Of a stretch of 64,000 bases of DNA, positions 12,285 to 63,098 are shown piece by piece. A program made the translations under genes and the position numbers. Source of the DNA: a virus; the IMG/VR virus record IMGVR_UViG_3300023208_000003, positions 1 through 64,000 of that record. One strand, given 5' to 3'. The stretch's first letter is position 1; every line of letters starts with the position of its first letter. Under the pieces are notes generated by a model. That model saw nothing but the letters and a program-made list of their open reading frames with translations, did no database searches and was not told where the DNA came from.

Positions 12285-12315
12285 GGTAAAATAGTGAATT
12301 ATTTAGAGTTTTAAA

Positions 12316-13478: not shown

Positions 13479-13481
13479 AAT

Positions 13482-13637
13482 ATGAAATCATACTCTGACA
13501 ACATGTTATCCACCGAAGACATCACGGCGCTACGTAAACAACAAAAAGTAATGAGAATTTGTCTTCGATCGTTTATGATAATTTCAACACTTAATCTTAT
13601 AGCGACAAGTTTTCTATTTTTTAAGTTGTTTTATTAA
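13482..13637 (+). CDS. small protein with a hydrophobic C-terminal helix (below the ORF-track cutoff)
   Basis: Translated by hand: MKSYSDNMLSTEDITALRKQQKVMRICLRSFMIISTLNLIATSFLFFKLFY (51 aa); starts 3 nt after the upstream stop and ends at the terminator. Confidence 0.5.
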   Translation: MKSYSDNMLSTEDITALRKQQKVMRICLRSFMIISTLNLIATSFLFFKLFY

Positions 13638-13680
13638 AAAACAAAAAGCTACCATTTTCACGTGGTAGCTTTTTGTTGTT
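13636..13680. terminator. intrinsic terminator, probably bidirectional
   Basis: aacaaaaagctacca / tggtagctttttgtt stem with A-run and T-run flanks. Confidence 0.85.
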
Positions 13681-13688
13681 ATTTTTTA

Positions 13689-13716
13689 TGTACATTTTTT
13701 CAACATTTGTTATAAT
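13689..13716 (+). promoter_or_regulatory. sigma70-like early/middle promoter
   Basis: TGTACA-N16-TATAAT with extended -10 TG. Confidence 0.7.
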
Positions 13717-13754
13717 TCTTAATAACGATAACAACCTCAAAAAGGTACACTACG

Positions 13755-18769: not shown

Positions 18770-19138
18770 ATGAGACTTTTTGAAATTAAGCAACTTAACG
18801 AAGGACTAGTTCCTATTCATCTTACGATGATTCTTCGTGAAATCATAGCTGCCGGTAAAGCAACGAATACCGTACATTTTGTTATTCTTGCCCAACTCAT
18901 CGAATTTTTTAAGTACTGCTCAGCAACAGCAATTCATAATTACAATGAGCATCCTTCTAATAAGGAACTCTTAGACTCTATCAAAGAACTTTCTGATAAA
19001 GATCAAACTGGGTTAGCAACTTGGTTATTAGAAAGATTTGAAGCTGGAGAGCTTGAAGCTGAACAATGCGCCCAATGGGCATGTCCTCAAATGACATTGA
19101 ACCAATGGGTAGGTTGGGTACTGCGAAAACAAGATTGA
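18770..19138 (+). CDS. hypothetical protein
   Basis: 122 aa; N-terminus MRLFEIKQLNEG. Confidence 0.7.
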   Translation: MRLFEIKQLNEGLVPIHLTMILREIIAAGKATNTVHFVILAQLIEFFKYCSATAIHNYNEHPSNKELLDSIKELSDKDQTGLATWLLERFEAGELEAEQCAQWACPQMTLNQWVGWVLRKQD

Positions 19139-45101: not shown

Positions 45102-46613
45102 ATGTCAAAGCTAATTATTTTAACAACTGAACCAGAAAACTTTGTACCGATAGAATTAGAGAAGGCAGCAAAAGAAGCAGGATTAGAAGTTGAAATTCTT
45201 AATCCTGATGAATGCTACATTTCATTAAGTGAAGAACCTTATATCTCGTACAAGGGAACAAAGTTTCTTGCTGCGGATTTTTGCATTCCGCGACTATCGG
45301 AGGAAAATCTTGAATACAAAATTGCTATCGCAAATCACATTGAAAAAATGGGCGTCAAGATTCTCAATACCGGAAAATCTTTACGTGCGGCTTCAAATAA
45401 AGTCGAAACTCAAATATTACTTAATAATGACGGAATTAAAACTCCTAAAACTGCAATTCTTACATCTGATGAACAGCTTGAACACGCAATTGAAGCTATA
45501 GGCGCCGAGTTTCCAGTAATTGTTAAGACAATCTTTGGTACGCATGGTGTGGGTGTTATACGTGCCGATTCCGCGCCCTCGCTTCGTTCGATTGTTCAGC
45601 AGTTATTAAAAGCTAATGTTGAATTTATGATTCAAGAGTTTATTAAACATGAAGAAAGCGGGCGCATTATCACTCTTGGTGAGGATGTACTAATTGCAGC
45701 GATGCGTACAATTCCTGAAGGTGACTTTCGTTCGAACGCGCATCAAGGAGCAGAACTAAAACCACATGATCCATCAGAAAAAGAAATTGAAATTGCGCTT
45801 AAAAGCGCAAAAGTTCTTGGCATAAATTTTGCAGCAGTCGATTACATCTTAAGTAATGATGAAGTTATTGTTCTTGAAGTCAATGGTTCACCGGGCTTTG
45901 AAGCAATGCAAAAAATAGCTGATTTTCAAATTGCAGAAAAGATTATTACCTACATTAAAGGTGAAACTCCTGAAGAAGAGGAGGAAGAAGCTGAAGTCGT
46001 GGACGTTGATCACGAAAAAGCGGTTGAACACGACAAGGAAGAAAATAAAGATGATGAAGCTAAAAAAACTGTGACAGTTCCAGATTCTGATCCTGAAGCT
46101 CAAGTAGCAGAACCTAAGAAAGACGAAGACGAACATAAGGAAGTTGACGTAACTGGGCAAGATGATAAAGTTATTGGAACATTAACTTCAGTTATTGTTA
46201 AACACTTTAATGATGAGGCGCCAATTGAAGCTCGAGTTGATACTGGTGCGCACGTTAGTTCTATTTGTGGTCAAGATATAAAAATTTCTGGTAATACTGT
46301 TTCATTCCGCTTTAATGACACGATTTACAAATTTCACCTTTTACGAATGGCAAAAATTAAACAGGCTGACAGTGAAAAAGCTGAAGAACGCCCTGTTATT
46401 CGCGTCGATATCGTAATCAACGGTGAAACTTTACGCAACGTAGAATTCACTGTCAATGAACGTAAACATATGAAGTATACAATTCTTCTAGGTCGTCAAA
46501 CGCTTGCTGCTGCTGGAGTTCTAGTTAACCCCGCAGCAAATCTAATTGACAAGGATAATAATTACAAAGTTGATAAAAATGATGATTCAAAAACAAGCAA
46601 TGAAGAAGAATAA
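45102..46613 (+). CDS. rimK: RimK-like ATP-grasp ligase fused to a retropepsin-like aspartic protease
   Basis: KTIFGTHGVGV, IQEFI, FRSNAHQG and LEVNGSPG; acidic linker; ARVDTGA and ILLGR. Confidence 0.85.
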   Translation: MSKLIILTTEPENFVPIELEKAAKEAGLEVEILNPDECYISLSEEPYISYKGTKFLAADFCIPRLSEENLEYKIAIANHIEKMGVKILNTGKSLRAASNKVETQILLNNDGIKTPKTAILTSDEQLEHAIEAIGAEFPVIVKTIFGTHGVGVIRADSAPSLRSIVQQLLKANVEFMIQEFIKHEESGRIITLGEDVLIAAMRTIPEGDFRSNAHQGAELKPHDPSEKEIEIALKSAKVLGINFAAVDYILSNDEVIVLEVNGSPGFEAMQKIADFQIAEKIITYIKGETPEEEEEEAEVVDVDHEKAVEHDKEENKDDEAKKTVTVPDSDPEAQVAEPKKDEDEHKEVDVTGQDDKVIGTLTSVIVKHFNDEAPIEARVDTGAHVSSICGQDIKISGNTVSFRFNDTIYKFHLLRMAKIKQADSEKAEERPVIRVDIVINGETLRNVEFTVNERKHMKYTILLGRQTLAAAGVLVNPAANLIDKDNNYKVDKNDDSKTSNEEE

Positions 46614-46675: not shown

Positions 46676-49600
46676 ATGCAATCTAAATATGGAACACTTG
46701 TAGGCTTTTTATCAGAAACCGACCTACAAAAAATTAAGGCACTTCCTGAGTTATCTGAACTTCAAGGTCAATTTGCTTCTAAAGATTACATTGACAGCGC
46801 AGTTGCTATTGCAATTGAAGCTGCAAGCTACGGGCTTTTAACAAGCAAAGGCGGTTCATTTGATACTCAAGCGCTTGCAGCAATTACTGCGTCAGTAAGC
46901 AACTTAGATGCAAAAATTAATCAAGAAGTTTCTATTAGAGCGCAGGGAGATTTAAATGGACAAGCGTTAATTAATAGTGAAATTCAAGCTCGTATCACAG
47001 GTGATGGTTTTCAAACCACAAAACGAGAAGAATTAAGTTCACTTCTTTTAGGTGTTCCAGATCCAAATGGTATTTCTTCATTTAGTTCAGGTTACATTAA
47101 AGACGTTTCAGATACTCTTGCGTCATCAGTACAAGCCGAAGCTTCAAAGCGCTCCGATTTAGTTGCTACGCTATTTGGACCAAATATTGATCCAGATAAT
47201 CTAAATGGTGTTACCCCAGCAAACTTAACCAGTGGCTTTATTAAAAGTGTAATGGATGTTACTGCTACTCCAACGGGAGCTACAGCTACTGCTATTACAA
47301 ATCTTGGCACTCAAGTTAATGATGCAATTGCTAGCGTTCAACAGGCAATGGATTCTATAGATGGTATTAAAGCTCATTACGGAGTAACCATTGATAATAA
47401 TGGCTATGTTTCAGGATTTGATTTAATTTCAGAACCTGGAATTACTGGAACCCCAGTTAGTTCATTTATTGTTCGCGCAGATAAATTTGCCGTTATTGAC
47501 CCAGCAATTTCTAACTCAGTTGGCGCCTTAGATTTAGCAAATCAAATAAGTAATTATTCGCCATTTTTCATTGAAAACGGCAACACTTACATTAAGAGCG
47601 CGCTCATCAAAGCTGCCTCAATTGATTTCGCGCAAATTTCAGATAGCATTCAATCAAGTAATTATAACGCAACAACTCACGCCGGCTGGAAGTTAAGTAA
47701 AGCTGGAACTATCGAAGCTAATGGCATTACAATTTATGGTTCTAATGGGCAAGTCGTTTTAAGCGCTGGTGGTGCTTTAAATGAAAATGTTCAAATTGGT
47801 TCAACAGGTAAAACCATAGGTCAGCTCGCGAATGATCAAGCGCTTTCACTTAATGCAGTACTAACTAATGATACTGAGCTTGTTTCTGCTTCATCAACTG
47901 GTGTTGTAAATCCAGTCGATTTAACCAATACTGGTGGACAGTTCCAGGTATTTAATGGTATTGACCAAATTGATAGTCAATTTCTTACCTTTAGTGTAGT
48001 TGCAGCTCAAACTATTGGTATCACAGCAACAATAAATTCATCAGGCGTTTATAATGTAACTGCGTTTCCTGATGCTAATGATTCTGGAACAGCAGTGTTC
48101 CAAGCTGTTTATGCTGTTGGTGGTACAACAATAGCAACAGTTCAAAAAACTTATAATATTACGAAAGTAAAATCTGCTACAGGCGCAGCGCCAATTCTTA
48201 CGTTAAAGTGCAGCGCGCTAATGATGAAATTTGATACGTCAGGAACCGCAGCTCCAACAAATCAAAGTATTACACTCGACGCTGTCATTTTAAATGGCTC
48301 AGGAACTCCTACTTGGTCAGCTACTAAATATAATTCTGCAGGTGTTTCACTTGGAGCCTGTACATTAGCAGCTGGAGCAAATGGAAATCAACGAATTCTT
48401 TCTGTTGCTAATTTTGGAAGTGCCGCGTATGTTGAAGTTGTTACATTTCTTTCAGGGGTTGGTCAAGATCAACAGCGCATTGTTCGACTCGGTGATGGTG
48501 CAGCTGGTCAACCAGGAGCAAATGGTGCAAATGGCACCTCGCCATTATTTGGTTATTTAACAAATGAAAGTCAGCCACTTCCTGCACTAGCTGACGGTAC
48601 AATAACTGATTATAGCGGTGCTTCTGGAACATTTATCGTATTCAATGGAAGCACTCAACTTGCAGCAAGCGCAGTTACATTTTCCGTAGTTACACCACTT
48701 CCAACTGGTGTAACCGCAACGATTAATACAGCTGGGGTGTATAATATTACGTCTATTCCGGCAGCAACAGCGAGCGCTGTTAACGTAACATTTAGAGCAG
48801 TTTACGCTGGAATAACAATTAATAAAGTTTTCTCAGTAACTAAATCTAAAACAGGTACTGCTGGTGCCAATGGAGCAGATGCGAAGTTACTTTGGTTGAA
48901 TTCTTCAGCAATGCACTTCTCTTATAACGGTGCAAATCAACCAATTCCAAACACACAATCAATAACTGTAAGTGCGGTTCGTCAAAATCTTGGTAACGCA
49001 ACAACTGACCCAATAACCTGGTCAATTACAAAATATGATTCCGCTGGAAATGTTTTAACGCCAGCAATTACTCCTGTAACAGGCGACACACAGACTATTT
49101 CAGTTGCCAATTTTACACCTGCGTTTAGAGTAGTAATCACCGCTTCACGTACGATTTCACCAGGTAACGTAATTTCTGATACTTTAACGCTATTCAAAGT
49201 GGCTGATGGTGCTGCCGGGGCTGCGGGTGCAGCTGGCGCACCAGGTTTAAATGGTACAAATGGTGTTTCACCAATTATTGGGTACCTTACAAATGAAAAT
49301 CAAGGTCTAGTTGCTGATAACGCTGGAGTAGTAACTGACTTCAGTAAAGCAAATGGAACATTTAACGTTTACAACGGAATAACACCAGTAACATCTGGTG
49401 TTACTTATAGCGTTGTTGCAACAACGGGATTACCTACAGGTGCTGCAACAATTAGCAATACTGGTGCATATACCGTTTCAGCTATAAATGCGGCAAATGA
49501 TTCTGCTTCAGCTACGTTCCGCGCTGCTTATGGTGGAGTTAATATTGATAAAATTTTCTCATTAACAAAAAGTAAACAGGCACAAACTCTTGATATAAGT

Positions 49601-52600
49601 AGCAACGTTTCTGCTTTTTACTTTGATAGCGCAGGAGTCGCAACTCCTGCCAATCAAACTCTTATTTGCACTGCGGCGCTACAGAATGTTTCAGGAACAA
49701 TCACCTGGACAATTACAAAATATGATGCAACGGGTGCTTCAATTGGAACAATTACACCGACCATTTCAAATACGAAAGTAACTGGCGATACTGCAACTAT
49801 TACAATTGCTAATTTTGGTGTTGCAGCAAGTATTAAAGTTGTAGCGGCGGTTGGAACACTTGTTTCCGACTCGCAGACTTTTTACAGAGTTCGTGATGGG
49901 GCAGCTGGGGCGAGCGCAAAGGGATTATCATTAGCTGCAACAAGCTACATTTTCAATTACGCTAAAAATAATACAATTTCACCATCCACAATTACGCTTA
50001 ACGCTGTTCCAATGGGTGGTTTAACAGGTCAAGTTCAATGGGCCGTAACAAGCGGAACCGCGACGCTTCCTACTCCAAGCAGCAGCGGCATTGCAGGTCT
50101 TACGAATGATGTTCTTAACATTACGCCTGCTGCAATTGCAACAAAAAGTGTTACAATTAAAGCTTATATTGGCACTGGCACAGTCGATTATGATTATATT
50201 ACAATTGCTAAAGTTGAAGAAGGAAAAGATGGTCTTGCTGGCTACTTAACAAATGAATCAGTTACGCTTAAAGCTAATAGTTCTGGAGTTGTAACATTAA
50301 CTGGCGCAACAACTGATTTTAAAGTTTATGTGGGCGCAACTGACGTTACTTCAAGCTGCACATTTACAAAAACAGATTCAGCAGGTTTAACTTCTACTCT
50401 GACTACCAGTGGTATTTGCACGATAACAGGCGCACCATTAACTGGTGGTTATGTCGACATTACTGCAACATATAACGGTGTAACTCCTGCTGTAACACTT
50501 GTTAAAAGATTCTCAATTGCAGTTATTCAGCTTGGAGCTTTAGCATCGCGTGATTCAATTGATTTAACCCAAGACGTTACTGGCCAACCACTTGACCCGA
50601 ATAACTACGTTCGCACACCAACCTTTAAAACATCTGGACAAAATTCTGGAGTTCGCACTTGGGGTAATTCACAGGCGAATAGTTTAAGTGTAACTGCAGT
50701 TACCGGGCAAGCTTGGAACGCAGCACTCACGCTTAATTATTACGTTAATACATTTGAAACTACAAACATTTTTCCAGTGCGGGCTGGTGAGGTTCTATAC
50801 TGCTACGCTGACGTAACAACAAGTGGTGAAACATCTCACACCGCTTGGGTAGGTTTAAGATTTTATACATCAGATGGGGTAACTCAAGCTGCTACTGTAG
50901 GTGCGGGGACTCTTGCTCCAAATCTAGCGTGGACAAGAATTGGCGGTCCTATTGTTGCGCCCGCTAACGCGTGTTACGCGCAGCCAATGGTTACTGGCAC
51001 TGGCGCCGCTGGTGCTTTTGCGGGCGGTTCAATCAAGTTTACTAACATTTACGTTAATCGCGTTGATGTAGGTTCGCGTACCCCGGTTACTTATTGGATT
51101 GATGACGTTGATAAGAAAAAAGGCGTGGCCTACGTAGCAGGTACGCCTGACGTATCATATGGTTATGATGGTGATATTTTCATTGACGCGCGGCTTAACT
51201 TTCCAGCAAATGGACCTGGCTCCAAATTAATGTATCTCAAAGATAGTGGAGCGTGGGTAAATATTGGTGCAGGTAGAATCAACGCGTCAAATATTGCTAC
51301 CTTCTTTGAAGGAGCTTGCATTGGCACTGCGCAAATTGGCAACGCTGCGATTGGCAACGCGCAGATCGGAAATTATATCCAGTCAACAAATTTCAACGGC
51401 TCAGCTTCAACTTTTGGTACAGCAACACAGGGTTGGAGAATTCATAAAGACCTAGGCATTGAAATGGCTGGAATTCCATTAACTATCAAAGATAGTAATG
51501 GAGTTGCAATTTTCTCAGCGGGTGTTGCATCAAGTTCAATTCTTAACAGTGCTGTTACGCTTTCATCTCTTGGAGCTGGAGCGTTTGCATCATTAAATGA
51601 AATTACTGCAGCTAATATTAGTACCTATATTGCTGATGGTGCCATTGGAAACGCCTACATTGGAAATACAATTCAATCTGCTGGTTTTACCGGAACTGCT
51701 ACAACACCAGGCTGGAAAATTGATAAGGCTGGAAATATTACAATTACCGGGGGCGCATTTACAATTTATGATACAGCTGGTAAGGCAATTTTCTCTGCAG
51801 GCGGTTCATACACGCCAATTAATTACTTAGGAGCATTTACTGGTGCCGCAGCTCCTGCTATTGCAAGTTATCCAAAAAATTCAACTTGGTATTGTAGTGC
51901 AAATGGAGGTACTCTGCCTTTTGTTAATGGCAATACTTATATTAAATCAACTGATACCGCTACTCAGTGGTCACCATGGTTATTAGCTGGTGCAATTGGT
52001 CCAACTGGTCCACAAGGAGCTCAAGGTCCACAAGGAGCAACTGGCGCTCAAGGTCCACAGGGCGCAGCGGGAACCAATGGAACTAATGGTGTAAATGGTA
52101 ATCGTGGTCCAGGAACTTTTTATTATAACGCTGGCGCAAGCGCTACAGGTTGGAGTGAGCCTCCTACTTCAGTTTATCCAGATGGTACAAAAAGATTTAG
52201 AGATACTGTTACTATGTATGGTGGAACTGGAACTGGTGCCTGGTCTCAAACAAGATTCTGGGATGGTACTACAACAACTTCTGGTACCTCAATTATAAAT
52301 GGTTGGAACAAAATAGATGTTGCTATTGACGGTAACTTGCTTGTAACAGGAACCGTAAACGGAAATAAAATTGTAGCAGGTTCAATTACCTCATCGCAGT
52401 TAACAACAACGTCTGCCGTTATTACTGGAACTTTACAAGTTGGAACTGGCGGTGTTATTACCTCACCATTATCAGCTTCTTTTGCTGATCAAGATTGGGG
52501 AAATGGCGCACATTTAATGGGTGATTACCGCACGGGTGTTAATACTCCTACTTATTATTTTTATAATTTAGGAACTTTAAATGTTCCTGCCGTTGATGTC

Positions 52601-53014
52601 GCTCATACTAAAATTGTTATTTTTTCATTTTTGTTCAAACATTCTGATCCAAGTCCAGGATTTTTCGCTGTTAATATTTTAAGAGCTCCTCAAGGAACTG
52701 CATTACCTCCGGCAGCAGATTCAAATACTACTCCATCAGGCTGGACACAGATTTGGCATGCAAGAATTGACCCAAGCACTAGATTAGCTGGTGATGACAA
52801 CTACACTAATGCCTATGATTATGATAATCAAACACCTTATACAATAGTAGATAAAGATGGTGTTTCAGCTAATGTTTCATATACATATCTTGTTAGAGGT
52901 GCACTAACAAATGCATACTATTATAGTAAAGTTTGGAAAACTTGGACATTAAATACGAATTATTGGTTGCAATTTAAAAATATGAATTTAACTATTTTCA
53001 CAGGTAAACGTTAA
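46676..53014 (+). CDS. large tail fibre / host-specificity (lambda J-like C-terminal motifs) protein
   Basis: 2112 aa; SSFIVRADKFAV, three IxxAxIxxxIQS...GW motifs, alternating LTN[ED] and NQxIT Ig-like modules, a putative carbohydrate-binding beta-sandwich and a collagen run. Confidence 0.8.
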   Translation: MQSKYGTLVGFLSETDLQKIKALPELSELQGQFASKDYIDSAVAIAIEAASYGLLTSKGGSFDTQALAAITASVSNLDAKINQEVSIRAQGDLNGQALINSEIQARITGDGFQTTKREELSSLLLGVPDPNGISSFSSGYIKDVSDTLASSVQAEASKRSDLVATLFGPNIDPDNLNGVTPANLTSGFIKSVMDVTATPTGATATAITNLGTQVNDAIASVQQAMDSIDGIKAHYGVTIDNNGYVSGFDLISEPGITGTPVSSFIVRADKFAVIDPAISNSVGALDLANQISNYSPFFIENGNTYIKSALIKAASIDFAQISDSIQSSNYNATTHAGWKLSKAGTIEANGITIYGSNGQVVLSAGGALNENVQIGSTGKTIGQLANDQALSLNAVLTNDTELVSASSTGVVNPVDLTNTGGQFQVFNGIDQIDSQFLTFSVVAAQTIGITATINSSGVYNVTAFPDANDSGTAVFQAVYAVGGTTIATVQKTYNITKVKSATGAAPILTLKCSALMMKFDTSGTAAPTNQSITLDAVILNGSGTPTWSATKYNSAGVSLGACTLAAGANGNQRILSVANFGSAAYVEVVTFLSGVGQDQQRIVRLGDGAAGQPGANGANGTSPLFGYLTNESQPLPALADGTITDYSGASGTFIVFNGSTQLAASAVTFSVVTPLPTGVTATINTAGVYNITSIPAATASAVNVTFRAVYAGITINKVFSVTKSKTGTAGANGADAKLLWLNSSAMHFSYNGANQPIPNTQSITVSAVRQNLGNATTDPITWSITKYDSAGNVLTPAITPVTGDTQTISVANFTPAFRVVITASRTISPGNVISDTLTLFKVADGAAGAAGAAGAPGLNGTNGVSPIIGYLTNENQGLVADNAGVVTDFSKANGTFNVYNGITPVTSGVTYSVVATTGLPTGAATISNTGAYTVSAINAANDSASATFRAAYGGVNIDKIFSLTKSKQAQTLDISSNVSAFYFDSAGVATPANQTLICTAALQNVSGTITWTITKYDATGASIGTITPTISNTKVTGDTATITIANFGVAASIKVVAAVGTLVSDSQTFYRVRDGAAGASAKGLSLAATSYIFNYAKNNTISPSTITLNAVPMGGLTGQVQWAVTSGTATLPTPSSSGIAGLTNDVLNITPAAIATKSVTIKAYIGTGTVDYDYITIAKVEEGKDGLAGYLTNESVTLKANSSGVVTLTGATTDFKVYVGATDVTSSCTFTKTDSAGLTSTLTTSGICTITGAPLTGGYVDITATYNGVTPAVTLVKRFSIAVIQLGALASRDSIDLTQDVTGQPLDPNNYVRTPTFKTSGQNSGVRTWGNSQANSLSVTAVTGQAWNAALTLNYYVNTFETTNIFPVRAGEVLYCYADVTTSGETSHTAWVGLRFYTSDGVTQAATVGAGTLAPNLAWTRIGGPIVAPANACYAQPMVTGTGAAGAFAGGSIKFTNIYVNRVDVGSRTPVTYWIDDVDKKKGVAYVAGTPDVSYGYDGDIFIDARLNFPANGPGSKLMYLKDSGAWVNIGAGRINASNIATFFEGACIGTAQIGNAAIGNAQIGNYIQSTNFNGSASTFGTATQGWRIHKDLGIEMAGIPLTIKDSNGVAIFSAGVASSSILNSAVTLSSLGAGAFASLNEITAANISTYIADGAIGNAYIGNTIQSAGFTGTATTPGWKIDKAGNITITGGAFTIYDTAGKAIFSAGGSYTPINYLGAFTGAAAPAIASYPKNSTWYCSANGGTLPFVNGNTYIKSTDTATQWSPWLLAGAIGPTGPQGAQGPQGATGAQGPQGAAGTNGTNGVNGNRGPGTFYYNAGASATGWSEPPTSVYPDGTKRFRDTVTMYGGTGTGAWSQTRFWDGTTTTSGTSIINGWNKIDVAIDGNLLVTGTVNGNKIVAGSITSSQLTTTSAVITGTLQVGTGGVITSPLSASFADQDWGNGAHLMGDYRTGVNTPTYYFYNLGTLNVPAVDVAHTKIVIFSFLFKHSDPSPGFFAVNILRAPQGTALPPAADSNTTPSGWTQIWHARIDPSTRLAGDDNYTNAYDYDNQTPYTIVDKDGVSANVSYTYLVRGALTNAYYYSKVWKTWTLNTNYWLQFKNMNLTIFTGKR

Positions 53015-53753: not shown

Positions 53754-54392
53754 ATGCATAGCCCGTTTCATATCGTTCAGGATTTTTTGTCTCCAAAACT
53801 CTGTGATGAAATATTAAGACAGATTGAACTAAAGCAACCAAATACCGATCGTGAAGGAAAAGCGATTCCATTTGAACGGCACCATGAGGGGCTAGAAAGA
53901 TTAATTTTTCCGCTTCTTAAACAAGAAGTTCCAAACATTGAGCAGCGTTATTTTGCAAAATATAAAGGAACTGAAACTTTAGTTTTTCAGCATTTTCCTG
54001 AACGCGCTAATACAATTGCAAAGCAACCAGGTTGTGAAAACGCGCAGTACACGCGCAAAAAATGGGTTAAAATAAAAGACGTTGATCTTACTGGATTTAT
54101 CTGGTTAAAGGATTTCAATGACTCTGTGCCGCTTGACCCACGAATTGAAGTCTATGGTGGCAAGCTAGAATTTCCAGCGTACAATTTTAGCTTACAACCG
54201 CAACGCGGAACTCTCGTTCTATTTCCTGCTGGTCCTCACTTTATAAATGCAATTTCGCCTGTGCTAGTAAGTGACCTTTATCAAATTAAAGTCAATATCT
54301 GTCTTTCACCAAATGACGGAAGTGGTATTTACCTTTATCAGCCAGCGAAATTTCCTGGCAAATGGCAAGATTGGCTAAAAGAGTTTGTTTAA
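53754..54392 (+). CDS. 2OG-Fe(II) oxygenase-fold protein with apparently degenerate metal ligands
   Basis: DFLSPKLCD, GGKLEFP and PQRGTLVLFP scaffold; no HxD/E...H triad. Confidence 0.65.
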   Translation: MHSPFHIVQDFLSPKLCDEILRQIELKQPNTDREGKAIPFERHHEGLERLIFPLLKQEVPNIEQRYFAKYKGTETLVFQHFPERANTIAKQPGCENAQYTRKKWVKIKDVDLTGFIWLKDFNDSVPLDPRIEVYGGKLEFPAYNFSLQPQRGTLVLFPAGPHFINAISPVLVSDLYQIKVNICLSPNDGSGIYLYQPAKFPGKWQDWLKEFV

Positions 54393-54661
54393 CCAACCTT
54401 AACGTCACCTGACCCTGCTACTACCAACCCGTCATCTGAGTTAGGAATTACAGCGTCACCTATTCTAACAACTGGTTTATTTTCTACTTTAACAGTGCTT
54501 GAAAAAGTCTGAAAAATAGTAGGGCTTTGTCCACCTTGCCCAGCTGTTAAATCAGTTTTTCTAATGATCGGCTTGTTATTAACTTTAACAGTGCTAGATC
54601 CATGCGCGCACTTGTCACCATTTGAGATTGGGTCATTTTGTCTTGCAACTGGTCTTGACAT
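54389..54661 (-). CDS. PAAR-repeat spike tip protein (gp5.4-like)
   Basis: PVARQND, PIIRKTD and PVVRIGD repeats with GSSTVKVN spacers. Confidence 0.85.
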   Translation of the reverse strand: MSRPVARQNDPISNGDKCAHGSSTVKVNNKPIIRKTDLTAGQGGQSPTIFQTFSSTVKVENKPVVRIGDAVIPNSDDGLVVAGSGDVKVG

Positions 54662-55124: not shown

Positions 55125-55665
55125 AATACATACTTGTTTTTTCTTTCTATGTTCGTCTGCATTTGCTGACATAATGATACCAAATGTGGCCCCAAATGAC
55201 TTAACACCAGATCAAAAAGCACAAATTGCTTTACAAGCTGCTCAATTTGCAAATCAAAACAAAACAATCGTGAACACGACGCCTGAACAGGTCAAACAAT
55301 GGGCAGATGTTGCCGACGCTCTTGCCAATGGTATTGGAAAAACAGCGCATTCATTGAATGTAGAAGTGAATGAATTCATAAAAAGTCCAGTAGGTATAAT
55401 GACCGCAGTTATGTTGTTTTGGAACTACATGGGTAAGGACTTTCTTGGAATTATATTTGGTACAGGTTGGCTAGCTGTCTCTTTACCTATTTGGTTATTT
55501 TTCTTTTGGAAATCTATCAACAAAACAGAAACAGAAGAGCACGGAAGTGGAGAGAATAAACAAAGTGTAACTACTAAAACCCTAGAGTATGATGGCGGGA
55601 TAGTAAGTGGATATTTGATAACACTTGCAGTTATTATATTTATTGGACTTTTTACAATCTTTTAA
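55118..55665 (+). pseudogene. membrane protein with signal peptide, apparently frameshifted in a T6 tract
   Basis: ATG 55118 has a GGAG SD but its frame stops at 55172-55174. One extra T in 55137-55142 gives MLKYILVFFFLCSSAFA-DIMIPN fused to ORF 55174-55665. Confidence 0.6.
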
Positions 55666-57299
55666 GATAAATCAGTGGCGTGCGTTCGGTAATGCCGCAA
55701 AAAAGCAGGGGCGTTATCAGTTCCTTTACGCATGCCACCAAATCCTTGTCCATGAATCATATACATAAACTCACCTTTCGTAGCATTTTGATAAATGGCG
55801 GTGTTTGAATTATTTTGTACCGCTTTACCTCCAATTGTTCCATTTGCCTTATACGTTGTATAAGCCTGCTTTTCCTCCTTAAGCATTATAATCATCGCTT
55901 CGGTTGATTTTTCAGGGTCGCAACGATTCTCACAGGTAGGTTCAATTCCTGCCTTTGCATAATACTCACCAGAAGTTCCATTCAACATTTGGTACAAACC
56001 AGTTGCTGATGATTTTGGATTTTTTGCGTATGGGTTATTACCACCCTCGATTGAACATAATTTTAAAAGATACTTTTTATCTTCTTCATCGAGTTCAGGG
56101 TGCTTGTCAGCCGTAGCGCGAACTTTTGCTTGAACTTCGGCAGCGCTTGGATGATTTTGCTTATAATTAGCTGGTCTGCAGGATGGAGCAGTCGAACCAA
56201 TTATTTGCTTATCTCCTGGAGCCGACTTACCATCATTGTATGTTCTACCATCTGGGCTATTTTCAAACTTAGGGCAACCGGTTTTTGCCTTTACATCAGC
56301 GTCAGATAACTTCTTTGGTGGAGTATTATCTTTTTTAAGCTGCTGGCCTGGCGCGTTTGGATTATCAGAAGCTGGATTAGTTCCTGTCGATTCTATTTTT
56401 TTGTTATCATTGATGTATGGCCATGGGTCAGTCTTACCGCCATTTGGTAAGATTAACTCAAAATGAAGGTGATTGCCAGTTCCAACGCCGGCATGACCTT
56501 CCTTAGCAATTGCTGTTCCCGAAGTTACCTTTTGACCGACACTAACATAAACCTGAGACATATGCGCGTACAGCGTGTCAGCTAAGTGAGTACCGTCTGG
56601 TGCAGTGTGCCGAATAATTACCTTATTGCCATAACCTTGAGATGTTCCATTTGAAACTGCTGCTATAACTTCGCCATCAGCAGCTGCTACAATATCAACA
56701 ATGCGACCACCACGCATCGCTAAGTCAATTCCTTTATGAAAATCAGTACATTTAGGGCAAGGCTTAGCACGGGGACCATAATCACTGGTTTTTACAGAAC
56801 CTGGCAACGGGTTAATTAAAGTAAGTTCGTTACCATTACACTTTTTAGCAGCCATGTTATAAGTTCGCTCATCAATTTCTTTGTTGTTTGCGTCAATTGC
56901 TTTTACTGTAAAAGTCAACGTCTTCTTTTCAAATTCATCTTTAATTGTACCTGATAACTTTCCACTTGTCCCATCGAAAGTTAGCCCTAAATCACTTGGT
57001 TGCTTTTCGGCACCTTGATCATCCTTAATTTTTAACTCATATTTAGGCGGGCTTTGATATGCTGCAGAAAGTGATCCCTCAGTTAAAACAAAAGTTTCAT
57101 CCATTTTCATTTCGCAATTAGCAGAAACAGAATTGTTTTTAATTCGATCAGGCGTTGGCGGAGTCGCTTGCATTTCATCAGCATCATCATCTCTAGCTGA
57201 AGCGCACTCAATGCTCTCTCCTTTTTGAAGATAATTATGAAGAACTTTTGCAATTCCTGATGATTTTTTAGCAGAAACTGAAGCGCAAGGGCAACCCAT
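55662..57299 (-). CDS. multidomain peptidoglycan hydrolase: Ig-like + M23 peptidase + lysozyme/SLT-like domain
   Basis: GLTFDGTSGKLSGT (Ig), HKGIDLA and HLHFE (M23), CSIEGG and ATGLYQML (transglycosylase). Confidence 0.85.
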   Translation of the reverse strand: MGCPCASVSAKKSSGIAKVLHNYLQKGESIECASARDDDADEMQATPPTPDRIKNNSVSANCEMKMDETFVLTEGSLSAAYQSPPKYELKIKDDQGAEKQPSDLGLTFDGTSGKLSGTIKDEFEKKTLTFTVKAIDANNKEIDERTYNMAAKKCNGNELTLINPLPGSVKTSDYGPRAKPCPKCTDFHKGIDLAMRGGRIVDIVAAADGEVIAAVSNGTSQGYGNKVIIRHTAPDGTHLADTLYAHMSQVYVSVGQKVTSGTAIAKEGHAGVGTGNHLHFELILPNGGKTDPWPYINDNKKIESTGTNPASDNPNAPGQQLKKDNTPPKKLSDADVKAKTGCPKFENSPDGRTYNDGKSAPGDKQIIGSTAPSCRPANYKQNHPSAAEVQAKVRATADKHPELDEEDKKYLLKLCSIEGGNNPYAKNPKSSATGLYQMLNGTSGEYYAKAGIEPTCENRCDPEKSTEAMIIMLKEEKQAYTTYKANGTIGGKAVQNNSNTAIYQNATKGEFMYMIHGQGFGGMRKGTDNAPAFLRHYRTHATDLS

Positions 57300-57300
57300 C

Positions 57301-57570
57301 TTACTTCACCTCATAAAAATGTTTTATTGCCTTAAGCTTTTCCTCGATAATATTCATTCTTTCCTCTGAGCGAATAATAAACATTGCAACATCTCGCTGA
57401 GTTATCTTATCAACGTCAAGCTGAAAGTCTTGTGGTGGTATCTCAAGCAGCTCTTGTGGCGGTTGCTTAAAAACATACTCGGTTTTAACTACTACGTTAG
57501 GTTTTGAAGGTGTTGCACAACCGCTTAAAAAAACTAACGAAAATGTTATGATAATTAGAATTTTATTCAT
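57301..57570 (-). CDS. outer-membrane lipoprotein, o-spanin (Rz1-like)
   Basis: Signal peptide with lipobox LSGC, Pro-rich segment and C-terminal helix. Confidence 0.75.
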   Translation of the reverse strand: MNKILIIITFSLVFLSGCATPSKPNVVVKTEYVFKQPPQELLEIPPQDFQLDVDKITQRDVAMFIIRSEERMNIIEEKLKAIKHFYEVK

Positions 57571-57576
57571 TTTTGC

Positions 57577-58218
57577 TTACAATTTTGCGTACTTTGAGAA
57601 ACCTTTTTCAATTAACTCAGCTTTTGTCTCTAAAAGATCAGATTTATTATGCACCGACTGCTTTATAATTGTAAGCACTTTTGTTAAATCTGAATTATCA
57701 TCATCGAAAAAAATACCAGGCTTTGTTTCATCAAATTTAATAAACATAATTTGAAGCGGATTTACAATTGCTTTACAACCATAAAAAACAATAGAAGCGC
57801 CTATTTTTTTCGGCAATCCTTTTAATGATGTTAAATTTACGCATCCCTCAAGAGACAGAAATCCAGTATAAGTAGGAGCGTGCTCAAGGCTTTTTAAAGC
57901 TACACAATTAACAATATACATATCACCAATTACAGTAATCGGCCCACCTTCAAGTGTTTCAAGCTTACTACAATCAGAAAGATCAAAATAGCTTTTAATA
58001 TACGAAGGAGAGCCTTTTAATGATGTAATCTTTGAATGATTAAAATCAGCATACCCCTTTAATTTGCAACCAGGAACATATTGATAAAACTTATATCTTT
58101 CAACTAAGCCATCAAGCGAATCCCAATATTGCGGTATTTCTAAATCGGCGTAGCAAATAGGAATGTTATCCGTATTAGCGACTGGTTCTTTAAAACGTTT
58201 AACTTCACTAAGCTTCAT
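57577..58218 (-). CDS. array member 7: LRR-like repeat protein with conserved C-terminal tag
   Basis: ITSLKGSP, LETLEGGP, LKSLEHAP and LTSLKGLP repeats; ends DLLETKAELIEKGFSKYAKL. Confidence 0.8.
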   Translation of the reverse strand: MKLSEVKRFKEPVANTDNIPICYADLEIPQYWDSLDGLVERYKFYQYVPGCKLKGYADFNHSKITSLKGSPSYIKSYFDLSDCSKLETLEGGPITVIGDMYIVNCVALKSLEHAPTYTGFLSLEGCVNLTSLKGLPKKIGASIVFYGCKAIVNPLQIMFIKFDETKPGIFFDDDNSDLTKVLTIIKQSVHNKSDLLETKAELIEKGFSKYAKL

Positions 58219-58661
58219 TTTTTTTTACTGCTTCTAATGGTCTGAATGTCACGAAGCGTTTCGCGCAGAACCGGTGCAACCGGGCCATCGGCAAGCTTCG
58301 AGAGCTTCTTAGCTATATTGTCATATTGCTCATGGTTTTGGCGTATCACCTCGTTTAACCGGGTGACAGCTTGATATGCTTTAAGTTGTTCTTCCAGCAC
58401 CCGGTTCAAAGTTTCCTGGGTTGTACGGTTGGCATCAACTACAGTGTTTAGCTCTTGGGTAATTTGCCCAAGCTGCTGTTCGGCTTCTTTGTTCTTTTTG
58501 TTGAGGTACATCACGGTTCCTGCGGCGCCAATTAGTGCGATAGCAAGAACCCAGATTGTCCAACCTCGCTTTACAATGTTGGACGTACCTATCCAGGCAA
58601 CGCTAATTCCGTCCTTCGCTTTCTCTAACCAGGTAAGTGCTTGTTCGTTTGTATCACTCAT
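58215..58661 (-). CDS. probable i-spanin (Rz-like)
   Basis: One N-terminal TM segment (WTIWVLAIALIGAAGTVMYL) then a long coiled coil; GC-richer than neighbours. Confidence 0.6.
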   Translation of the reverse strand: MSDTNEQALTWLEKAKDGISVAWIGTSNIVKRGWTIWVLAIALIGAAGTVMYLNKKNKEAEQQLGQITQELNTVVDANRTTQETLNRVLEEQLKAYQAVTRLNEVIRQNHEQYDNIAKKLSKLADGPVAPVLRETLRDIQTIRSSKKK

Positions 58662-58662
58662 T

Positions 58663-59325
58663 TTAGTACTTCGCTATTTCTTTAAAACCATTTTCAATCA
58701 ACAACACTTTTAATCCCAGCGGATCATTTTCCTGAACATATTTTGAAACCTCTCTTTCAAAGCTTCTGCTCATTTCCCACTGTTTCATATCTGTCATAAT
58801 TTCAACAGTTTTTAGTCCTGGAATGCTGCAAAGATTTAGCCAACCCAATGTTTCAAAAGTGATTGATGCTTTTTCAGCGTGTTCAATTGTCTTTACTGCT
58901 TCAACCAAGTTAAAATTTCTATCATACTTATTGCTTGGAAAGCGAACACACTTTGATCGAATTTTTATACCTGATAGAGCGCCTTCATTAAAAGTTGTCC
59001 AGTAAAAATCAAATTTTGCTGGCTGCATTTGTTCATCATTTTTTAACAATAATTTTAAAGGTTCAATAAATTCAACGTCAACATCCATTGATTTTATTAA
59101 CGCAACTCTAAAAATTGAACTGCGAAATTTTGGATCCTTTTCTAAACCTAAGCCGCCGCCTTCAGTTAATTTTACTTTTTTTTCCGTAAAAGCTGGAATT
59201 GAATTTTTTACTTTATTATTGAACCAGCGGTGACCATGCATATTCGCATCATCAATCCAAACACTAATAAGAATTGGGTATTGAAAAAATTTAAGGCGTG
59301 CTTCTGATAATTCAATTAACTTCAT
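58663..59325 (-). CDS. array member 6 (most divergent tag)
   Basis: MKLIELSEA...DPLGLKVLLIENGFKEIAKY. Confidence 0.75.
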   Translation of the reverse strand: MKLIELSEARLKFFQYPILISVWIDDANMHGHRWFNNKVKNSIPAFTEKKVKLTEGGGLGLEKDPKFRSSIFRVALIKSMDVDVEFIEPLKLLLKNDEQMQPAKFDFYWTTFNEGALSGIKIRSKCVRFPSNKYDRNFNLVEAVKTIEHAEKASITFETLGWLNLCSIPGLKTVEIMTDMKQWEMSRSFEREVSKYVQENDPLGLKVLLIENGFKEIAKY

Positions 59326-60191
59326 AACTTTGCGTAAGCTCCTAAGCCGTTCTCAATTAACTCTGTCTTGCACTCAAGAATATCACCTACTTCTCCATCT
59401 GCAGATCGTATATAGTTGTTTATAATTTTTACAGCAGCTTCCATATTTTTAATTTTTGGCCCGGAACTATCAAAAAATGAAGATGTTTTATCAAGATAAA
59501 TTTCCCAAAGACGCACGCACAATAATGCAGATAGTAAATTAACAGGATTTTTCGCAGCGAAGCTAAAAGACTGGAGATGATCAAACTTTTTAAGGTTTTT
59601 TATATTAATGTTATCTGCAAAAAGTTTTAAAGATACTAAGCTCTCAGGTAAACCTTTTACATCAAGACTTGAATTTGCGTAAGCGCCTACAATTCTCATC
59701 CCTTTAACAAAAGAATCTGCTATGTCAAACGCTGGATAATTTGCATTACCAAGACGAATGTCAAATCCATCACTAATCGTAGCAGGAAATTCTTCCCAAG
59801 ATTTAAAGTTGCATCTTGAAAGAAATAGTCTAGTCATTTCATCAGGAAATCCAACAAAATTTTCAAAGCTCACTTTTAAAAATGATAATCTGCCGGCGTG
59901 CGTAATCTTAACGCGAAATTTTTCAACGCCACCATCATTTATAAAAAAGTCATCTGCGGAAACTTCATTTTGGTCAAGATTAACTTCTGATTGAGACACA
60001 TTTTTTATTATAAGTTCACCTTGAGAAATTATAGTATGAAGTGAACGCGGATTTATTTTATAAAAGCTGCTGCTCAAAAGCAAAGTTTCTTCAAAAAATT
60101 TTTCAACAGCGTCATAGGTGTCAAGCATCCAAGGACGATACGGAGTAATCTTTTTTCCAATATGTGGATTTTGTACCTCAAATAATTTCAT
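59322..60191 (-). CDS. array member 5 (degenerate LRR-like)
   Basis: MKLFEV...DILECKTELIENGLGAYAKL; N-half similar to member 4 (TPYxPWML). Confidence 0.8.
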   Translation of the reverse strand: MKLFEVQNPHIGKKITPYRPWMLDTYDAVEKFFEETLLLSSSFYKINPRSLHTIISQGELIIKNVSQSEVNLDQNEVSADDFFINDGGVEKFRVKITHAGRLSFLKVSFENFVGFPDEMTRLFLSRCNFKSWEEFPATISDGFDIRLGNANYPAFDIADSFVKGMRIVGAYANSSLDVKGLPESLVSLKLFADNINIKNLKKFDHLQSFSFAAKNPVNLLSALLCVRLWEIYLDKTSSFFDSSGPKIKNMEAAVKIINNYIRSADGEVGDILECKTELIENGLGAYAKL

Positions 60192-61009
60192 AACTTTGCA
60201 AACTCCTCAAGCTTTGCTTCAATTAATTCTGCTTTACAGTCGAGCACGTCTTTTTCTTTGTGAAGGTGTTTAACGATAATACTGCAAGCTTCGCCAGCTC
60301 TTACCATTGGTTCTTCCTTATCAATACCAGGGCCAGGACCTACAGCTATAAGTTCAGGGCAAAGCAAGAATGAAAGTAGACCAGTCGATTCTTTAAAGTA
60401 AAAAGTAAATTGACGAACGTGCGGGTAAAACTTTCCAACCTTCTTAAAGTTAATTGAGTTTCCGCCTGCAAACATCGAGCGTACATCCTGTGGGCCACCT
60501 TCAAGCGTTGGGATATCACTTTGATCGGTTACACCATAAACAAAATTCTTGCAACTTACGTGTGAGATATCAAAAGGTTTATATCCTTTCAAGTAAAAAT
60601 TTAAATCCTCATGAATAATCTGTGGAAACTCGTCAAAACTTTCAATTTCAGCTTCGTCAAGCGATAAAGTATTAACTGTATCAGGAAAACCTGCAAAATT
60701 TTTAAGTCGGACTCCTGCTGGTATTTGAAGCGTGTTAATATGCGACCACTTTGCTGGCAAAATATGGTAGCCATTTTTTTCAATGAAAAAAGAATCTATA
60801 GTTGGACCAAAAGACCCTTTAGGTTTGACAAAAATTGAATCATGACAGCTTACCTCTAAATTGCGAGGGTTGATTTTTGCCTTGTCATTGTCAAACAGTT
60901 TTAGCCCTTGAAGATACTCTTGTACCTCACGGTATGTTTTTAACATCCACGGGCAGTACGGTGTAACTTCGCGGTCTAAATAAGGTTGTAAAACTTCAAA
61001 TACTTTCAT
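60188..61009 (-). CDS. array member 4 (degenerate LRR-like)
   Basis: MKVFEV...DVLDCKAELIEAKLEEFAKL. Confidence 0.8.
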   Translation of the reverse strand: MKVFEVLQPYLDREVTPYCPWMLKTYREVQEYLQGLKLFDNDKAKINPRNLEVSCHDSIFVKPKGSFGPTIDSFFIEKNGYHILPAKWSHINTLQIPAGVRLKNFAGFPDTVNTLSLDEAEIESFDEFPQIIHEDLNFYLKGYKPFDISHVSCKNFVYGVTDQSDIPTLEGGPQDVRSMFAGGNSINFKKVGKFYPHVRQFTFYFKESTGLLSFLLCPELIAVGPGPGIDKEEPMVRAGEACSIIVKHLHKEKDVLDCKAELIEAKLEEFAKL

Positions 61010-61665
61010 AATTTTGCATTTTGTGAATATCCTTGTTCAATTAACTCAGCTTTAACGTCTAAAAGATCATGATTTGACCTAAGCGCGCCTTGAATTATTT
61101 TTGCCCAAGGAGTTTGATTTCCTGTAATAGTTATAAATTTAATGTAAGGAATTAACATTAGCCCTAAACCACCAACATTAATAAACTGCGGATTGTTTAA
61201 AATTATTTGATTTGCAAATGTAAATTTTTTATTAACACCTATTAAACTATTTAAAAAATTATGCGAACAATAAAGCTTTATTGAATAGTACTCATATGTT
61301 TCAGAATTAGGAAGTTCGCGAAAGCAAAGTTGCATATCATTGTCAATTCCAAGCTTATCACCAGTCACTTTAATTCCAACGTCATTTAAAATTTCATTTA
61401 CTTTATCAAGTTCATCCATTGTTATATTTGGTTTACAATTAAACAAGACTCTTATATAATGATTGCGTTTACCTGATAAAGTACCATTATCAAACATATC
61501 AGAATCAACATATTCAATACCTGGCAGAAATGTAGTGTCGTTAAGCGCGTCAATAACATTTTGTAAAGCAGAATAATCATCAAAGTTATTAGAAAATGAC
61601 ATTTTAGACTTAAGTGTAAGCCAATTTGGCGCCATCTCTATTAAAAATTGCTTAAAGCTTTGCAT
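61006..61665 (-). CDS. array member 3
   Basis: MQSFKQFLIEMA...DLLDVKAELIEQGYSQNAKL. Confidence 0.8.
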   Translation of the reverse strand: MQSFKQFLIEMAPNWLTLKSKMSFSNNFDDYSALQNVIDALNDTTFLPGIEYVDSDMFDNGTLSGKRNHYIRVLFNCKPNITMDELDKVNEILNDVGIKVTGDKLGIDNDMQLCFRELPNSETYEYYSIKLYCSHNFLNSLIGVNKKFTFANQIILNNPQFINVGGLGLMLIPYIKFITITGNQTPWAKIIQGALRSNHDLLDVKAELIEQGYSQNAKL

Positions 61666-62434
61666 ATTGACTAAATCCCTTTTCTATTAATTCTGCCTTA
61701 CAGTCAAGCATGTCACGTTCACCTTTTAAATGATTACTGATAATTTCAAACCATAATTCATTTTTTGTTATTGCGAAATTTGAATGAATAGAAAACTCTC
61801 CTTTTATTAATAAAATTCCAAGAACATTACTTTGAATATACGGAATAGTTCCAGCAGTAAAAACTATTTCACTAAATCCGTCTGCTAAAACACGAATATT
61901 TGAATACTGACTTTTCTTTTCATTAATAATAGTAGGGATCATTTTGTGAATATTCGTAAGTGATGTCGGTGAGCTTGCCTCAATAAAAACATCATCAACA
62001 TTATCAACTACGATACCTTTAAACGGAAGATTAATCCATACAAAACTATTAACTTCCATTTTTATGTCTGAACCAAATTCCGCACGAAGCTGTTGAATAA
62101 ACCCATTCCGTAACTTTAAGCAATCAACGCTTTGAACCAATGGAAATGACATTTCAAGTTCATATACCGGGCCATCAGCTCCAAGTGACGTTAAAATATC
62201 ATCGTCTTCATAATTATGTGTTCGCTTTAATGAAAAAGCGCGCTTAAAGTTATTTTTAACAGTGTTAAACTCTTCGACCGTAGCTGGAAATCTTCGCTCA
62301 AGATCAGATTTGCTTATTTCGTGATCTTCTCCATTAAAAAGTTCATCATCAGATTCAATAAAAATCTTAGGAACTATTTTAAAAGCTGTTACTGGTTGCA
62401 ACCCCTCTTTTAAGAAATGTTTAAAGTTTTGCAT
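61652..62434 (-). CDS. array member 2
   Basis: Start moved to ATG 62434: MQNFKHFLKEG...DMLDCKAELIEKGFSQYAKL. Confidence 0.8.
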   Translation of the reverse strand: MQNFKHFLKEGLQPVTAFKIVPKIFIESDDELFNGEDHEISKSDLERRFPATVEEFNTVKNNFKRAFSLKRTHNYEDDDILTSLGADGPVYELEMSFPLVQSVDCLKLRNGFIQQLRAEFGSDIKMEVNSFVWINLPFKGIVVDNVDDVFIEASSPTSLTNIHKMIPTIINEKKSQYSNIRVLADGFSEIVFTAGTIPYIQSNVLGILLIKGEFSIHSNFAITKNELWFEIISNHLKGERDMLDCKAELIEKGFSQYAKL

Positions 62435-63098
62435 GCTGTCCAAATCCATTTTTAATTAATTCTGTTTTACATTCAAGCAGGTCACGATCTTCACTTTTTA
62501 AGTAACCGTTCAAAGTACTTAACCAAACCGGTATATCATCAGTATCACAACGTAAAAATTCAAGATCATCAATTAATAAAAAACCAAGACCGCCCTCTTT
62601 AAATTCATTAATATCAAAAAGACTTAAAGTCTTAAATGAAAAAGTATCCTTTGTAATTTTAATTTTTTTATGAATACCGCAAAGACTTTCAAATTTAGTG
62701 TTACCATTTAAAAACAACTTAAAACCATCTGGTGACCAGACATTGTTTGGCATTTTAAAAAGATCAGCAAATATATTAACTGAAAATATTGAATATCCTA
62801 ATTCGCTAATTTGTTTTTCAATCCATTTAAATGTAGATTGCGAAATAAGTTCAGTGCACGGTTTAATCGCTTCAAAATCAAATTCAAGTTCACTACCACG
62901 ATCTAGATAAAAATCAATCGGTCGCAAATAAGGTTTAAATGAACTTTCATTCTTAAAGCTATAAACTAAACCACCAATATTATCTTTGAAATGATTAAGT
63001 TCTTCGCTAGATCTAGTAAAATTTACATCTAATACGATTTTAAAAAGTGCGTCATAATCAGGTTCAGCTTCTATTAAAAATTGCTTAAAGTTTTTCAT
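62421..63098 (-). CDS. array member 1
   Basis: Start moved to ATG 63098 (ATGA overlap): MKNFKQFLIEAE...DLLECKTELIKNGFGQHAKL. Confidence 0.8.
   Translation of the reverse strand: MKNFKQFLIEAEPDYDALFKIVLDVNFTRSSEELNHFKDNIGGLVYSFKNESSFKPYLRPIDFYLDRGSELEFDFEAIKPCTELISQSTFKWIEKQISELGYSIFSVNIFADLFKMPNNVWSPDGFKLFLNGNTKFESLCGIHKKIKITKDTFSFKTLSLFDINEFKEGGLGFLLIDDLEFLRCDTDDIPVWLSTLNGYLKSEDRDLLECKTELIKNGFGQHAKL

Follow-up and report, generated by a model that had tools for sequence, protein, structure and literature searches.

The closest described counterparts of the protein family analyzed here are the internal proteins of T4 and other T-even phages (IPI, IPII and IPIII, together with Alt): basic proteins of 8–20 kDa, present in three copies, with diverse mature parts and encoded in hyperplastic loci that differ between close relatives. 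Packaged head proteins of this type have leaders of 10–19 residues, and T4 IPI is a single injected inhibitor of a single restriction enzyme. The first 10 residues of IPIII are sufficient for packaging, whereby residues 4 and 7 control targeting and residues 8 and 10 control processing, and the gp21 protease cleaves after L/I-X-E (PMC9026906). Head-internal proteins in multiple copies are also known from the inner-body and ejection families of phages phiKZ, 201phi2-1 and SPN3US, which are cut after Glu by a gp21-related protease and ejected (PMC9026906). The subject of the present analysis is an array of seven genes at positions 57577–63098 of a viral DNA window (the first 64 kb of the 197,099-bp IMG/VR contig IMGVR_UViG_3300023208_000003), whose products combine a short N-terminal leader, a fast-changing middle that is probably built on leucine-rich repeats (LRR) and a conserved C-terminal module. 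We propose that these are LRR binders which are loaded into the prohead, are clipped by a protease of the S77 family, travel inside the capsid and reach the host together with the DNA; whether this is so seems to us an even call.

The likeness to the T-even internal proteins concerns the key positions of the 10-residue leader, the presence of a gp21-type S77 protease, the diversity of the mature parts and a locus that differs between close relatives. The differences are as follows: the mature parts are not homologous, none of the members matched internal-protein families in PHROGs or Pfam, and the present family consists of acidic LRR proteins, of approximately 24–33 kDa in the window, with at least 34 copies on the contig, as opposed to three small basic proteins. 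An extra C-terminal module of about 90 amino acids (aa) is present in the LRR family only, for which packaging and cleavage are predicted. The phiKZ-like ejection families belong to an unrelated lineage with an S/A-X-E cleavage motif, long propeptides and no LRR, and no sequence similarity to them was found.

The open reading frame (ORF) listing of the window showed seven co-oriented ORFs of 213–289 aa on the minus strand between 57577 and 63098, with products of approximately 24–33 kDa and an isoelectric point (pI) of 5.0–8.7:

57577–58218, minus strand: member 1, 213 aa; four canonical LRR units and the conserved C-terminal module; located between the i-spanin and o-spanin genes
58663–59325, minus strand: member 2, 220 aa; class I leader with L-S-E at residues 6–8; unique middle; diverged C-terminus with AKY as the last residues
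59322–60191, minus strand: member 3, 289 aa; paralog of member 4
60188–61009, minus strand: member 4, 273 aa; small N-domain and degenerate LRR
61006–61665, minus strand: member 5, 219 aa; class II leader MQSFKQFLIE, similar to the T4 capsid-targeting sequence (CTS); start inside the YAKL-stop codons of member 6
61652–62434, minus strand: member 6, 260 aa from the ATG overlapping the upstream stop; class II leader; N-domain with long helices, no plain LRR
62421–63098, minus strand: member 7, 225 aa from the ATG at 63098; class II leader

The longest ORF of member 6 extends to 62449, and the database gene call uses the overlapping ATG; an alternative GTG start of member 7 at 63113 is less likely. 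The seven co-oriented genes with a common C-terminal block, as recognized in the initial annotation, are all present on the minus strand. The array is real, but it is interrupted by an Rz-like i-spanin gene (58215–58661), and the number seven was an undercount: a profile built from the seven members recovered 34 paralogs on the contig, 27 of them outside the array, and therefore the array is far beyond chance. The additional paralogs are clustered at 84, 99–108, 124–125 and 135–148 kb of the contig, and all 34 together make up about 12% of its sequence; a regular expression found 32 copies. Since the 197,099-bp contig was rated by CheckV as 55% complete, the source is an uncultured jumbo phage of roughly 350 kb.

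In the alignment of the seven members, D, L, K, L, I, A and K within the final 20 residues do not vary, and neither does a Leu in the upstream G.L..LLI block. The conserved Asp occupies position 20 from the end in seven out of seven proteins, both in the ORFs and in the alignment, exactly as had been noticed initially, but the conserved block is really much longer than 20 aa: it covers approximately 90 aa, running from SL.GIHK.I through LGLLLI and II..HL to the terminal helices. A search with the profile of this module against 1.84 billion cluster representatives (clusters counted at 50% identity) returned 2,114 protein clusters at E ≤ 1e-3, of which 502 also passed E ≤ 1e-10. Among the best 150 of the 2,114 matches the module ran, with few exceptions, to the last residue of proteins of approximately 160–370 aa, and the exact terminal motif was present in 114 of 118 full-length non-self representatives. 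Other jumbo-phage contigs carried 10–16 copies, including 16 on a complete 360-kb genome. No significant matching family was found for the seven members in Pfam, PHROGs and NCBIfam, or by profile search among PDB sequences; in Pfam there was no match even at E ≤ 1, the BspA/TpLRR model LRR_5 (PF13306) included, the relatives giving only weak matches to LRR_4, LRRNT and LRR_EndoS. Comparison of the array by blastn with 50,697 phage records produced no match, and among the same records the only match to the C-terminal module, with two family members as queries, was the Ralstonia phage RsoM2USA. No description of the family was found in the literature searched. Judged from these searches, the family is large, without a name and present in jumbo phages. 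A search for longer homologs returned only the queries themselves and proteins of a sister contig, and was uninformative on fused or enzymatic cargos. Among the few cases with a non-terminal motif is a 591-aa metagenomic protein that joins two complete family units head to tail, leaving the C-terminal motif of the first in the interior; it may be a product of read-through or an assembly artefact.

The AlphaFold model of member 1, based on a 132-row alignment, was obtained with a predicted local distance difference test score (pLDDT) of 85 and a predicted template-modelling score (pTM) of 0.79. Residues 1–13 and 26–41 are disordered in this model, residues 45–213 form a beta-solenoid, and terminal helices are located at 177–190, 195–204 and 208–211. 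The top matches in a structural search with member 1 were all LRR/L-domain proteins (Z 8–10.7), namely XopL, a designed LRR, Roco, YopM, internalin and IpaH9.8. The LRRs of YopM, IpaH/SspH, XopL and internalin were among the best matches (Z 8.3–10.6), with 8–16% identity, i.e., the likeness is at the fold level only. In the bacterial effectors, which are delivered proteins, it is the LRR that binds the target; the window family carries neither a NEL nor another enzymatic domain. Foldseek against the PDB gave only weak rows, all of them LRR (TpLRR included) and none at E ≤ 1e-3, and against BFVD it gave four significant, unnamed matches, which probably represent the RsoM2USA members, with whose lengths they agree. 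LRR solenoids are made of tandem units of about 22 residues with a parallel beta face, and according to the model member 1 is such a solenoid, with one continuous fold and a three-helix cap.

The AlphaFold model of member 6 was much less certain (pLDDT 66 overall): the last 70 residues were confident, and the N-domain consisted of long helices with low confidence; its ESM Atlas model (pLDDT 0.44) had uninformative neighbours. A hidden Markov model (HMM) of the repeat unit found canonical LRR units in 12 of the 34 paralogs, with four units in member 1, one in member 4 and none in the other members of the window. Thus, of the three LRR-like middles seen in the initial annotation, that of member 1 is clear and canonical and elsewhere in the window there is a single unit in member 4, while LRR-like last turns are common to all seven members. 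Similarly, the description of the middles as unalignable is correct insofar as constant ends enclose fast-changing middles, but members 3 and 4 are approximately 30% identical, and the sister-contig ortholog of member 5 is 28% identical to member 7 over the full length. At the BLAST level, members 2 and 6 had no relatives among the other payloads in the window. On the basis of these alignments, the window payloads are diverged paralogs and not unrelated cargos.

These results bear directly on the proposal of the initial annotation, according to which the 20 terminal residues act as an autonomous address tag that docks on portal, core or chaperone and carries unrelated cargos grafted onto it. 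In the model of member 1 the same 20 residues are the last two helices of the three-helix cap, packed on the solenoid with a pLDDT of 95–98, which is the uniform fold with a capping C-terminus that the annotation itself had named as the outcome against the tag. The conserved hydrophobic positions follow, in our reading, a buried-face pattern, and the payloads are related to each other, as stated above. The near-constant terminal motif among the representatives would suit a tag, as would a 45-aa mini-gene of the sister contig that retains just the leader and the tag in frame. The L-I-E within the tag also agrees with the logo of gp21 cleavage sites, and C-terminal processing is likewise known from T4 Alt (PMC9026906); many representatives, however, have S, T, A, D, Q or N in place of the Glu of this L-I-E. 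We regard an autonomous tag as quite improbable: the segment appears to be mainly a structural cap, perhaps with an extra docking role, and the address is likely to be the N-terminal leader and not the C-terminus.

Two other interpretations of the C-terminus were rejected. The NEL E3-ligase domain has a size of about 300 aa and a catalytic Cys; in the family, only three short helices (approximately 37 aa) follow the solenoid and there was no Pfam or NCBIfam match, which excluded an IpaH/SspH-like NEL Cys enzyme. We also dismissed the idea that the terminal AKL is a signal of the peroxisomal or ssrA type, which it does not match and which would be irrelevant for a phage of a Gram-negative host. 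The repeat type of the family, L.SL.G.P..V.G.F.C, is of the kind found in phages and giant viruses. A 211-aa protein of Vibrio phage VB_VaC_SRILMA (3501–4136) consists nearly entirely of the same LRR unit type (NNLTSLEGAPQSVQGNF.C) and has neither the leader nor the C-terminal module, and therefore the repeat type is older and broader than the family.

The N-termini are stereotyped, as first noticed, with MK[LV].E in members 1–4 and M..FK.FL.E in members 5–7, and they can be assigned to two classes of leaders. The class I consensus across the family is MKLKELFEE, which ends with L/I-x-E and resembles the propeptides of gp24 and gp22; among the window members, member 2 shows it clearly and members 1, 3 and 4 only weakly. 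The class II leader, M-x-x-F-K-x-F-L-x-E, is present in members 5, 6 and 7 and has an aromatic residue at positions 4 and 7, L/I at position 8 and E at position 10. The T4 N-termini used for comparison were MKTYQEFIAE (IPII/IPIII), MKTFKEF (IPI) and MAKINELLRE (gp24). Members 5–7 carry F4, F7, L8 and E10, that is, all four functionally mapped T4 positions, and in some family members the first five residues are identical to IPI; the likeness to head-targeting peptides, already suspected initially, was thus borne out. Leaders of class I or II were found in 18 of the 34 members compared to 3 of 162 other ORFs on the contig, and a recognizable leader was present in 83 of the 118 non-self representatives. 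In both AlphaFold models (members 1 and 6) the leader is disordered.

A protease that may remove such leaders is encoded on the same contig. Peptidase_S77 (PF03420) was detected above the cut-off (86 bits) at contig positions 114714–115151, adjoining the portal, scaffold and capsid genes, and the scaffold, protease and capsid proteins all have L-x-E or I-x-E near their N-termini. By its gene content the phage thus has a prohead protease of the gp21 type together with a T4-like head module. The S77 protease is also present in RsoM2USA and in two large family-bearing IMG/VR contigs. Outside the family, CTS-like leaders (MKL.E..., MKLSLKEFLE..., MPSFK...) occur in ORFs at window positions 1146–1736, 16555–17457 and 18770–19138 and at contig positions 119117–120238 and 138211–138777; the 188-aa product of the ORF starting at 138211 has the leader and, in place of the C-terminal module, a basic tail. 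These ORFs may encode further packaged proteins.

The cultured phage RsoM2USA provided a link to the virion. A genome profile search found approximately five family copies in it, three of them in tandem (ORF88-90), annotated as hypothetical with "no significant similarity"; they are true members, sharing the leaders, the LRR middle and the C-terminal module with the rest of the family, and their stops and starts overlap as in the window. They differ from the window array in the low copy number (about five in 344 kb), an identity of about 29% and the terminal residues AQL, AEM and AEI. In the published work on this phage, the most abundant SDS-PAGE (sodium dodecyl sulfate-polyacrylamide gel electrophoresis) bands of the virions were cut out and analyzed by liquid chromatography with tandem mass spectrometry; ORF89, an "unknown" protein of 28.57 kDa, was assigned to one of the ten Coomassie-visible bands (PMC8504454) and has the coordinates 66030–66791 (PMC8504454 supplement). 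The translation of 66030–66791 is a family member with a class II leader and a computed mass of 28.56 kDa. Hence, one homolog of the family is an abundant virion protein according to published data, in which the identification is at the band level and the place in the particle and the N-terminus are unreported (PMC8504454). In XacN1, the closest cultured relative of RsoM2USA, no family member was found.

The presence of ORF89 in virions is also compatible with external virion proteins, i.e., LRR proteins that would sit on the baseplate, the fibres or the surface of the capsid as adhesins or accessory receptor binders, anchored to a common virion partner by the C-terminal module, with the variable N-terminal part pointing outward. 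LRRs are classical adhesion domains, with internalin and BspA/TpLRR folds among the structural matches, the arrays are joined to the ends of tail-fibre or baseplate operons, and the conserved polar surface of the C-terminal helices would suit a shared docking site. Such a placement gives no account, however, of a family-wide disordered leader that matches the four T4 CTS positions together with the protease motif; moreover, at least 34 different proteins with one anchor are hard to fit on a tail, and the model of member 1 showed no fibre-like or trimerization features. An external position is, in our judgement, unlikely.

The gene junctions are of two types. In type 1, TAT GCN AAG CTT TAA (Y-A-K-L-stop) is read with a shift of +1 base as ATG CNA AGC TTT AA (M-x-S-F-K), so that the same 14 nt encode the C-terminus of one gene and the first five leader residues of the next; in type 2, a shared ATGA leads to an M-K start. 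Because the junctions are double-coding, part of the N-terminal conservation is forced. This favors the view that the proteins are non-virion, intracellular binders for host takeover or regulation, with the N-terminal motif serving translation re-initiation and the C-terminus being only a cap. The acidic character of the proteins, different from DNA-bound internal proteins, points in the same direction, as do sigma-70-like promoters in front of the members at contig 102379 and 104395. On the other hand, F7, L8 and E10 are located beyond the overlap and are conserved despite synonymous codon variation, and the class II leader also occurs where the start is not forced by an overlap, i.e., after an intergenic gap (contig 106707) and after a 4-nt overlap (RsoM2USA ORF89). 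Together with the detection of ORF89 in purified virions, this makes a purely intracellular role unlikely. The two promoters mentioned (contig 102325–102379 and 104359–104395; n = 2) are near-identical (TTGTAC, 17 nt, TATAAT, with an upstream TG) and suggest early expression of some paralogs.

The junctions are also repeated at the DNA level. A repeat search gave the following feature, with copies of at most 80% identity:

61636–61720, no strand assigned: junction repeat of about 85 nt comprising the 3' end of one member and the 5' start of the next; further copies at 62405–62489, 59306–59390 and 57561–57645

It is a plausible substrate for unequal crossover. Gene turnover was evident from the comparison with a syntenic sister contig of 107 kb (JAWBPO010000002.1), which is part of the NCBI metagenome-assembled genome (MAG) GCA_038824965.1, binned as Nitrosotenuis. 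This contig carries spanins, an M23 peptidase, PAAR and tail genes, and therefore very likely comes from a phage of a Gram-negative bacterium and was put by mistake into a bin of low-GC archaea. Altogether, two NCBI MAG records carrying family members are labelled Nitrosotenuis or Nitrosopumilaceae archaeon. The sister contig has four members and the 45-aa mini-gene, with members 7, 3 and 1 missing. The mini-gene (12217–12354 of the sister contig), in which a class I leader is fused in frame to the last ~20 family residues, is found at the position of member 3 and resembles the outcome of an internal deletion that spared the two ends. The spanin genes of the sister contig are only 2 nt apart (13015–13736), while in the window member 1 is located between them (57301–58661), and thus member 1 looks like a recent gene insertion into the lysis cassette.

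The amino-acid identity between the two contigs was 73% for member 2, 69% for member 4 and 58% for member 5, against 91% for the i-spanin; overall, the family orthologs had 58–73% and the neighbouring genes 83–91% identity. The ratio of nonsynonymous to synonymous substitutions (dN/dS) was 0.12–0.23 for the family orthologs and 0.03–0.08 for the neighbouring genes, these values being rough with dS saturated (1.0–2.1). At this saturation, positive selection was not detectable in any region, and the C-terminal 70 aa, with the exception of member 5, were not clearly slower than the payload between orthologs. The family is functional, under purifying selection and fast-evolving, with gene turnover.

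The reading preferred here, packaging and injection, can be formulated as a sequence of predicted steps. The genes would form the 3' ends of late structural operons, being transcribed together and coupled in translation. Each product would have a floppy leader of 5–10 residues that mimics the T4 CTS and ends in the L/I-x-E cut motif, a specificity part made of the fast-diverging N-terminal subdomain and the LRR surface, and the ~90-aa module consisting of the last LRR turns and the three-helix cap. The leader would draw the protein into the prohead scaffolding core and would be removed by the S77 protease; the mature proteins would stay inside the capsid until they pass into the host along with the DNA, and each paralog would bind a different host (or rival-phage) protein.

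Several points weigh against this sequence. A leader was not recognizable in 35 of the 118 representatives, and in members 1, 3 and 4 it is weak, with F-K-E at residues 9–11 and [LV]-F-E at residues 3–5. The family is larger and acidic, with a median pI of 5.7 versus 8.9–9.5 for the T4 internal proteins. The co-occurrence with the S77 protease may reflect shared phage ancestry, and the virion evidence consists of one protein, ORF89, identified at the band level without a location in the virion. The sigma-70-like promoters directly precede two family members (contig 102379 and 104395). The leader hypothesis gives no account of the conserved polar residues in the C-terminal helices, and cleavage, head location and ejection of the members are steps that we infer.

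The array terminates, as judged from the gene assignments, in a lysis cassette with the following neighbours:

58215–58661, minus strand: Rz-like i-spanin, 148 aa, not a family member; phrog_214 (E 3e-6) and phrog_739 (E 6.6e-6)
57301–57570, minus strand: o-spanin lipoprotein, 89 aa; phrog_456 (E 1.6e-6), lipobox LSGC
55662–57299: M23-peptidase/transglycosylase, next to the o-spanin gene

On the same strand upstream of the array, tail-fibre-like and baseplate-like genes are located, with no recognizable terminator or promoter in between. The family arrays overlap the ends of structural operons, and in another phage the array follows gp5/gp25-like baseplate genes. The T4 late-promoter consensus TATAAATA was found 20–90 nt upstream of several structural genes (tail fibre, tape-measure-like and scaffold):

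Window 34177, 39880 and 53715: TATAAATA sites
Contig 109713 and 115508–115575: TATAAATA sites

This suggests T4-type late transcription in the source phage; the late timing of the window array itself, which has no intergenic space of its own, is deduced from the operon context only. Other genes in this part of the window encode a 90-aa PAAR-like spike-tip protein (54389–54661), near a 2,112-aa protein (46676–53014) whose sister-contig ortholog matches Phage_Tail_Tip and Collagen, and a 503-aa protein (45102–46613) matching the RimK-like "ribosomal protein S6 glutaminyl transferase" phrog_2599 (E 5e-23).

In its broadest form, the idea is a combinatorially diversifying library of LRR binders, tens of them in each jumbo phage with a T4-type head (34 on the contig, perhaps about 60 per genome), which would be packaged in the capsid and injected as a pre-made counter-defence or takeover repertoire, with junctions built for expansion. 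Unequal crossover at the ~85-nt junctions would create new genes that are in frame, coupled and correctly addressed, and both termini may be processing signals, given that L-I-E in the C-terminal helix fits the protease logo. We consider this extension speculative and on the whole doubtful. Should packaging and injection be borne out, no larger repertoire of phage proteins delivered by the virion would be known; it would also be the first one built on a dedicated binding scaffold, the LRR, and would widen the T4 IPI paradigm from one inhibitor to dozens of binders per phage. The cultured, member-bearing RsoM2USA makes the packaging hypothesis directly testable. With a profile of the C-terminal module, thousands of jumbo-phage genes now called "hypothetical" would receive an annotation, since the family comprises more than 2,000 clusters and is yet absent from Pfam, PHROGs and NCBIfam, and designed binders could be loaded into phage heads with the leader and the LRR scaffold as a natural chassis.

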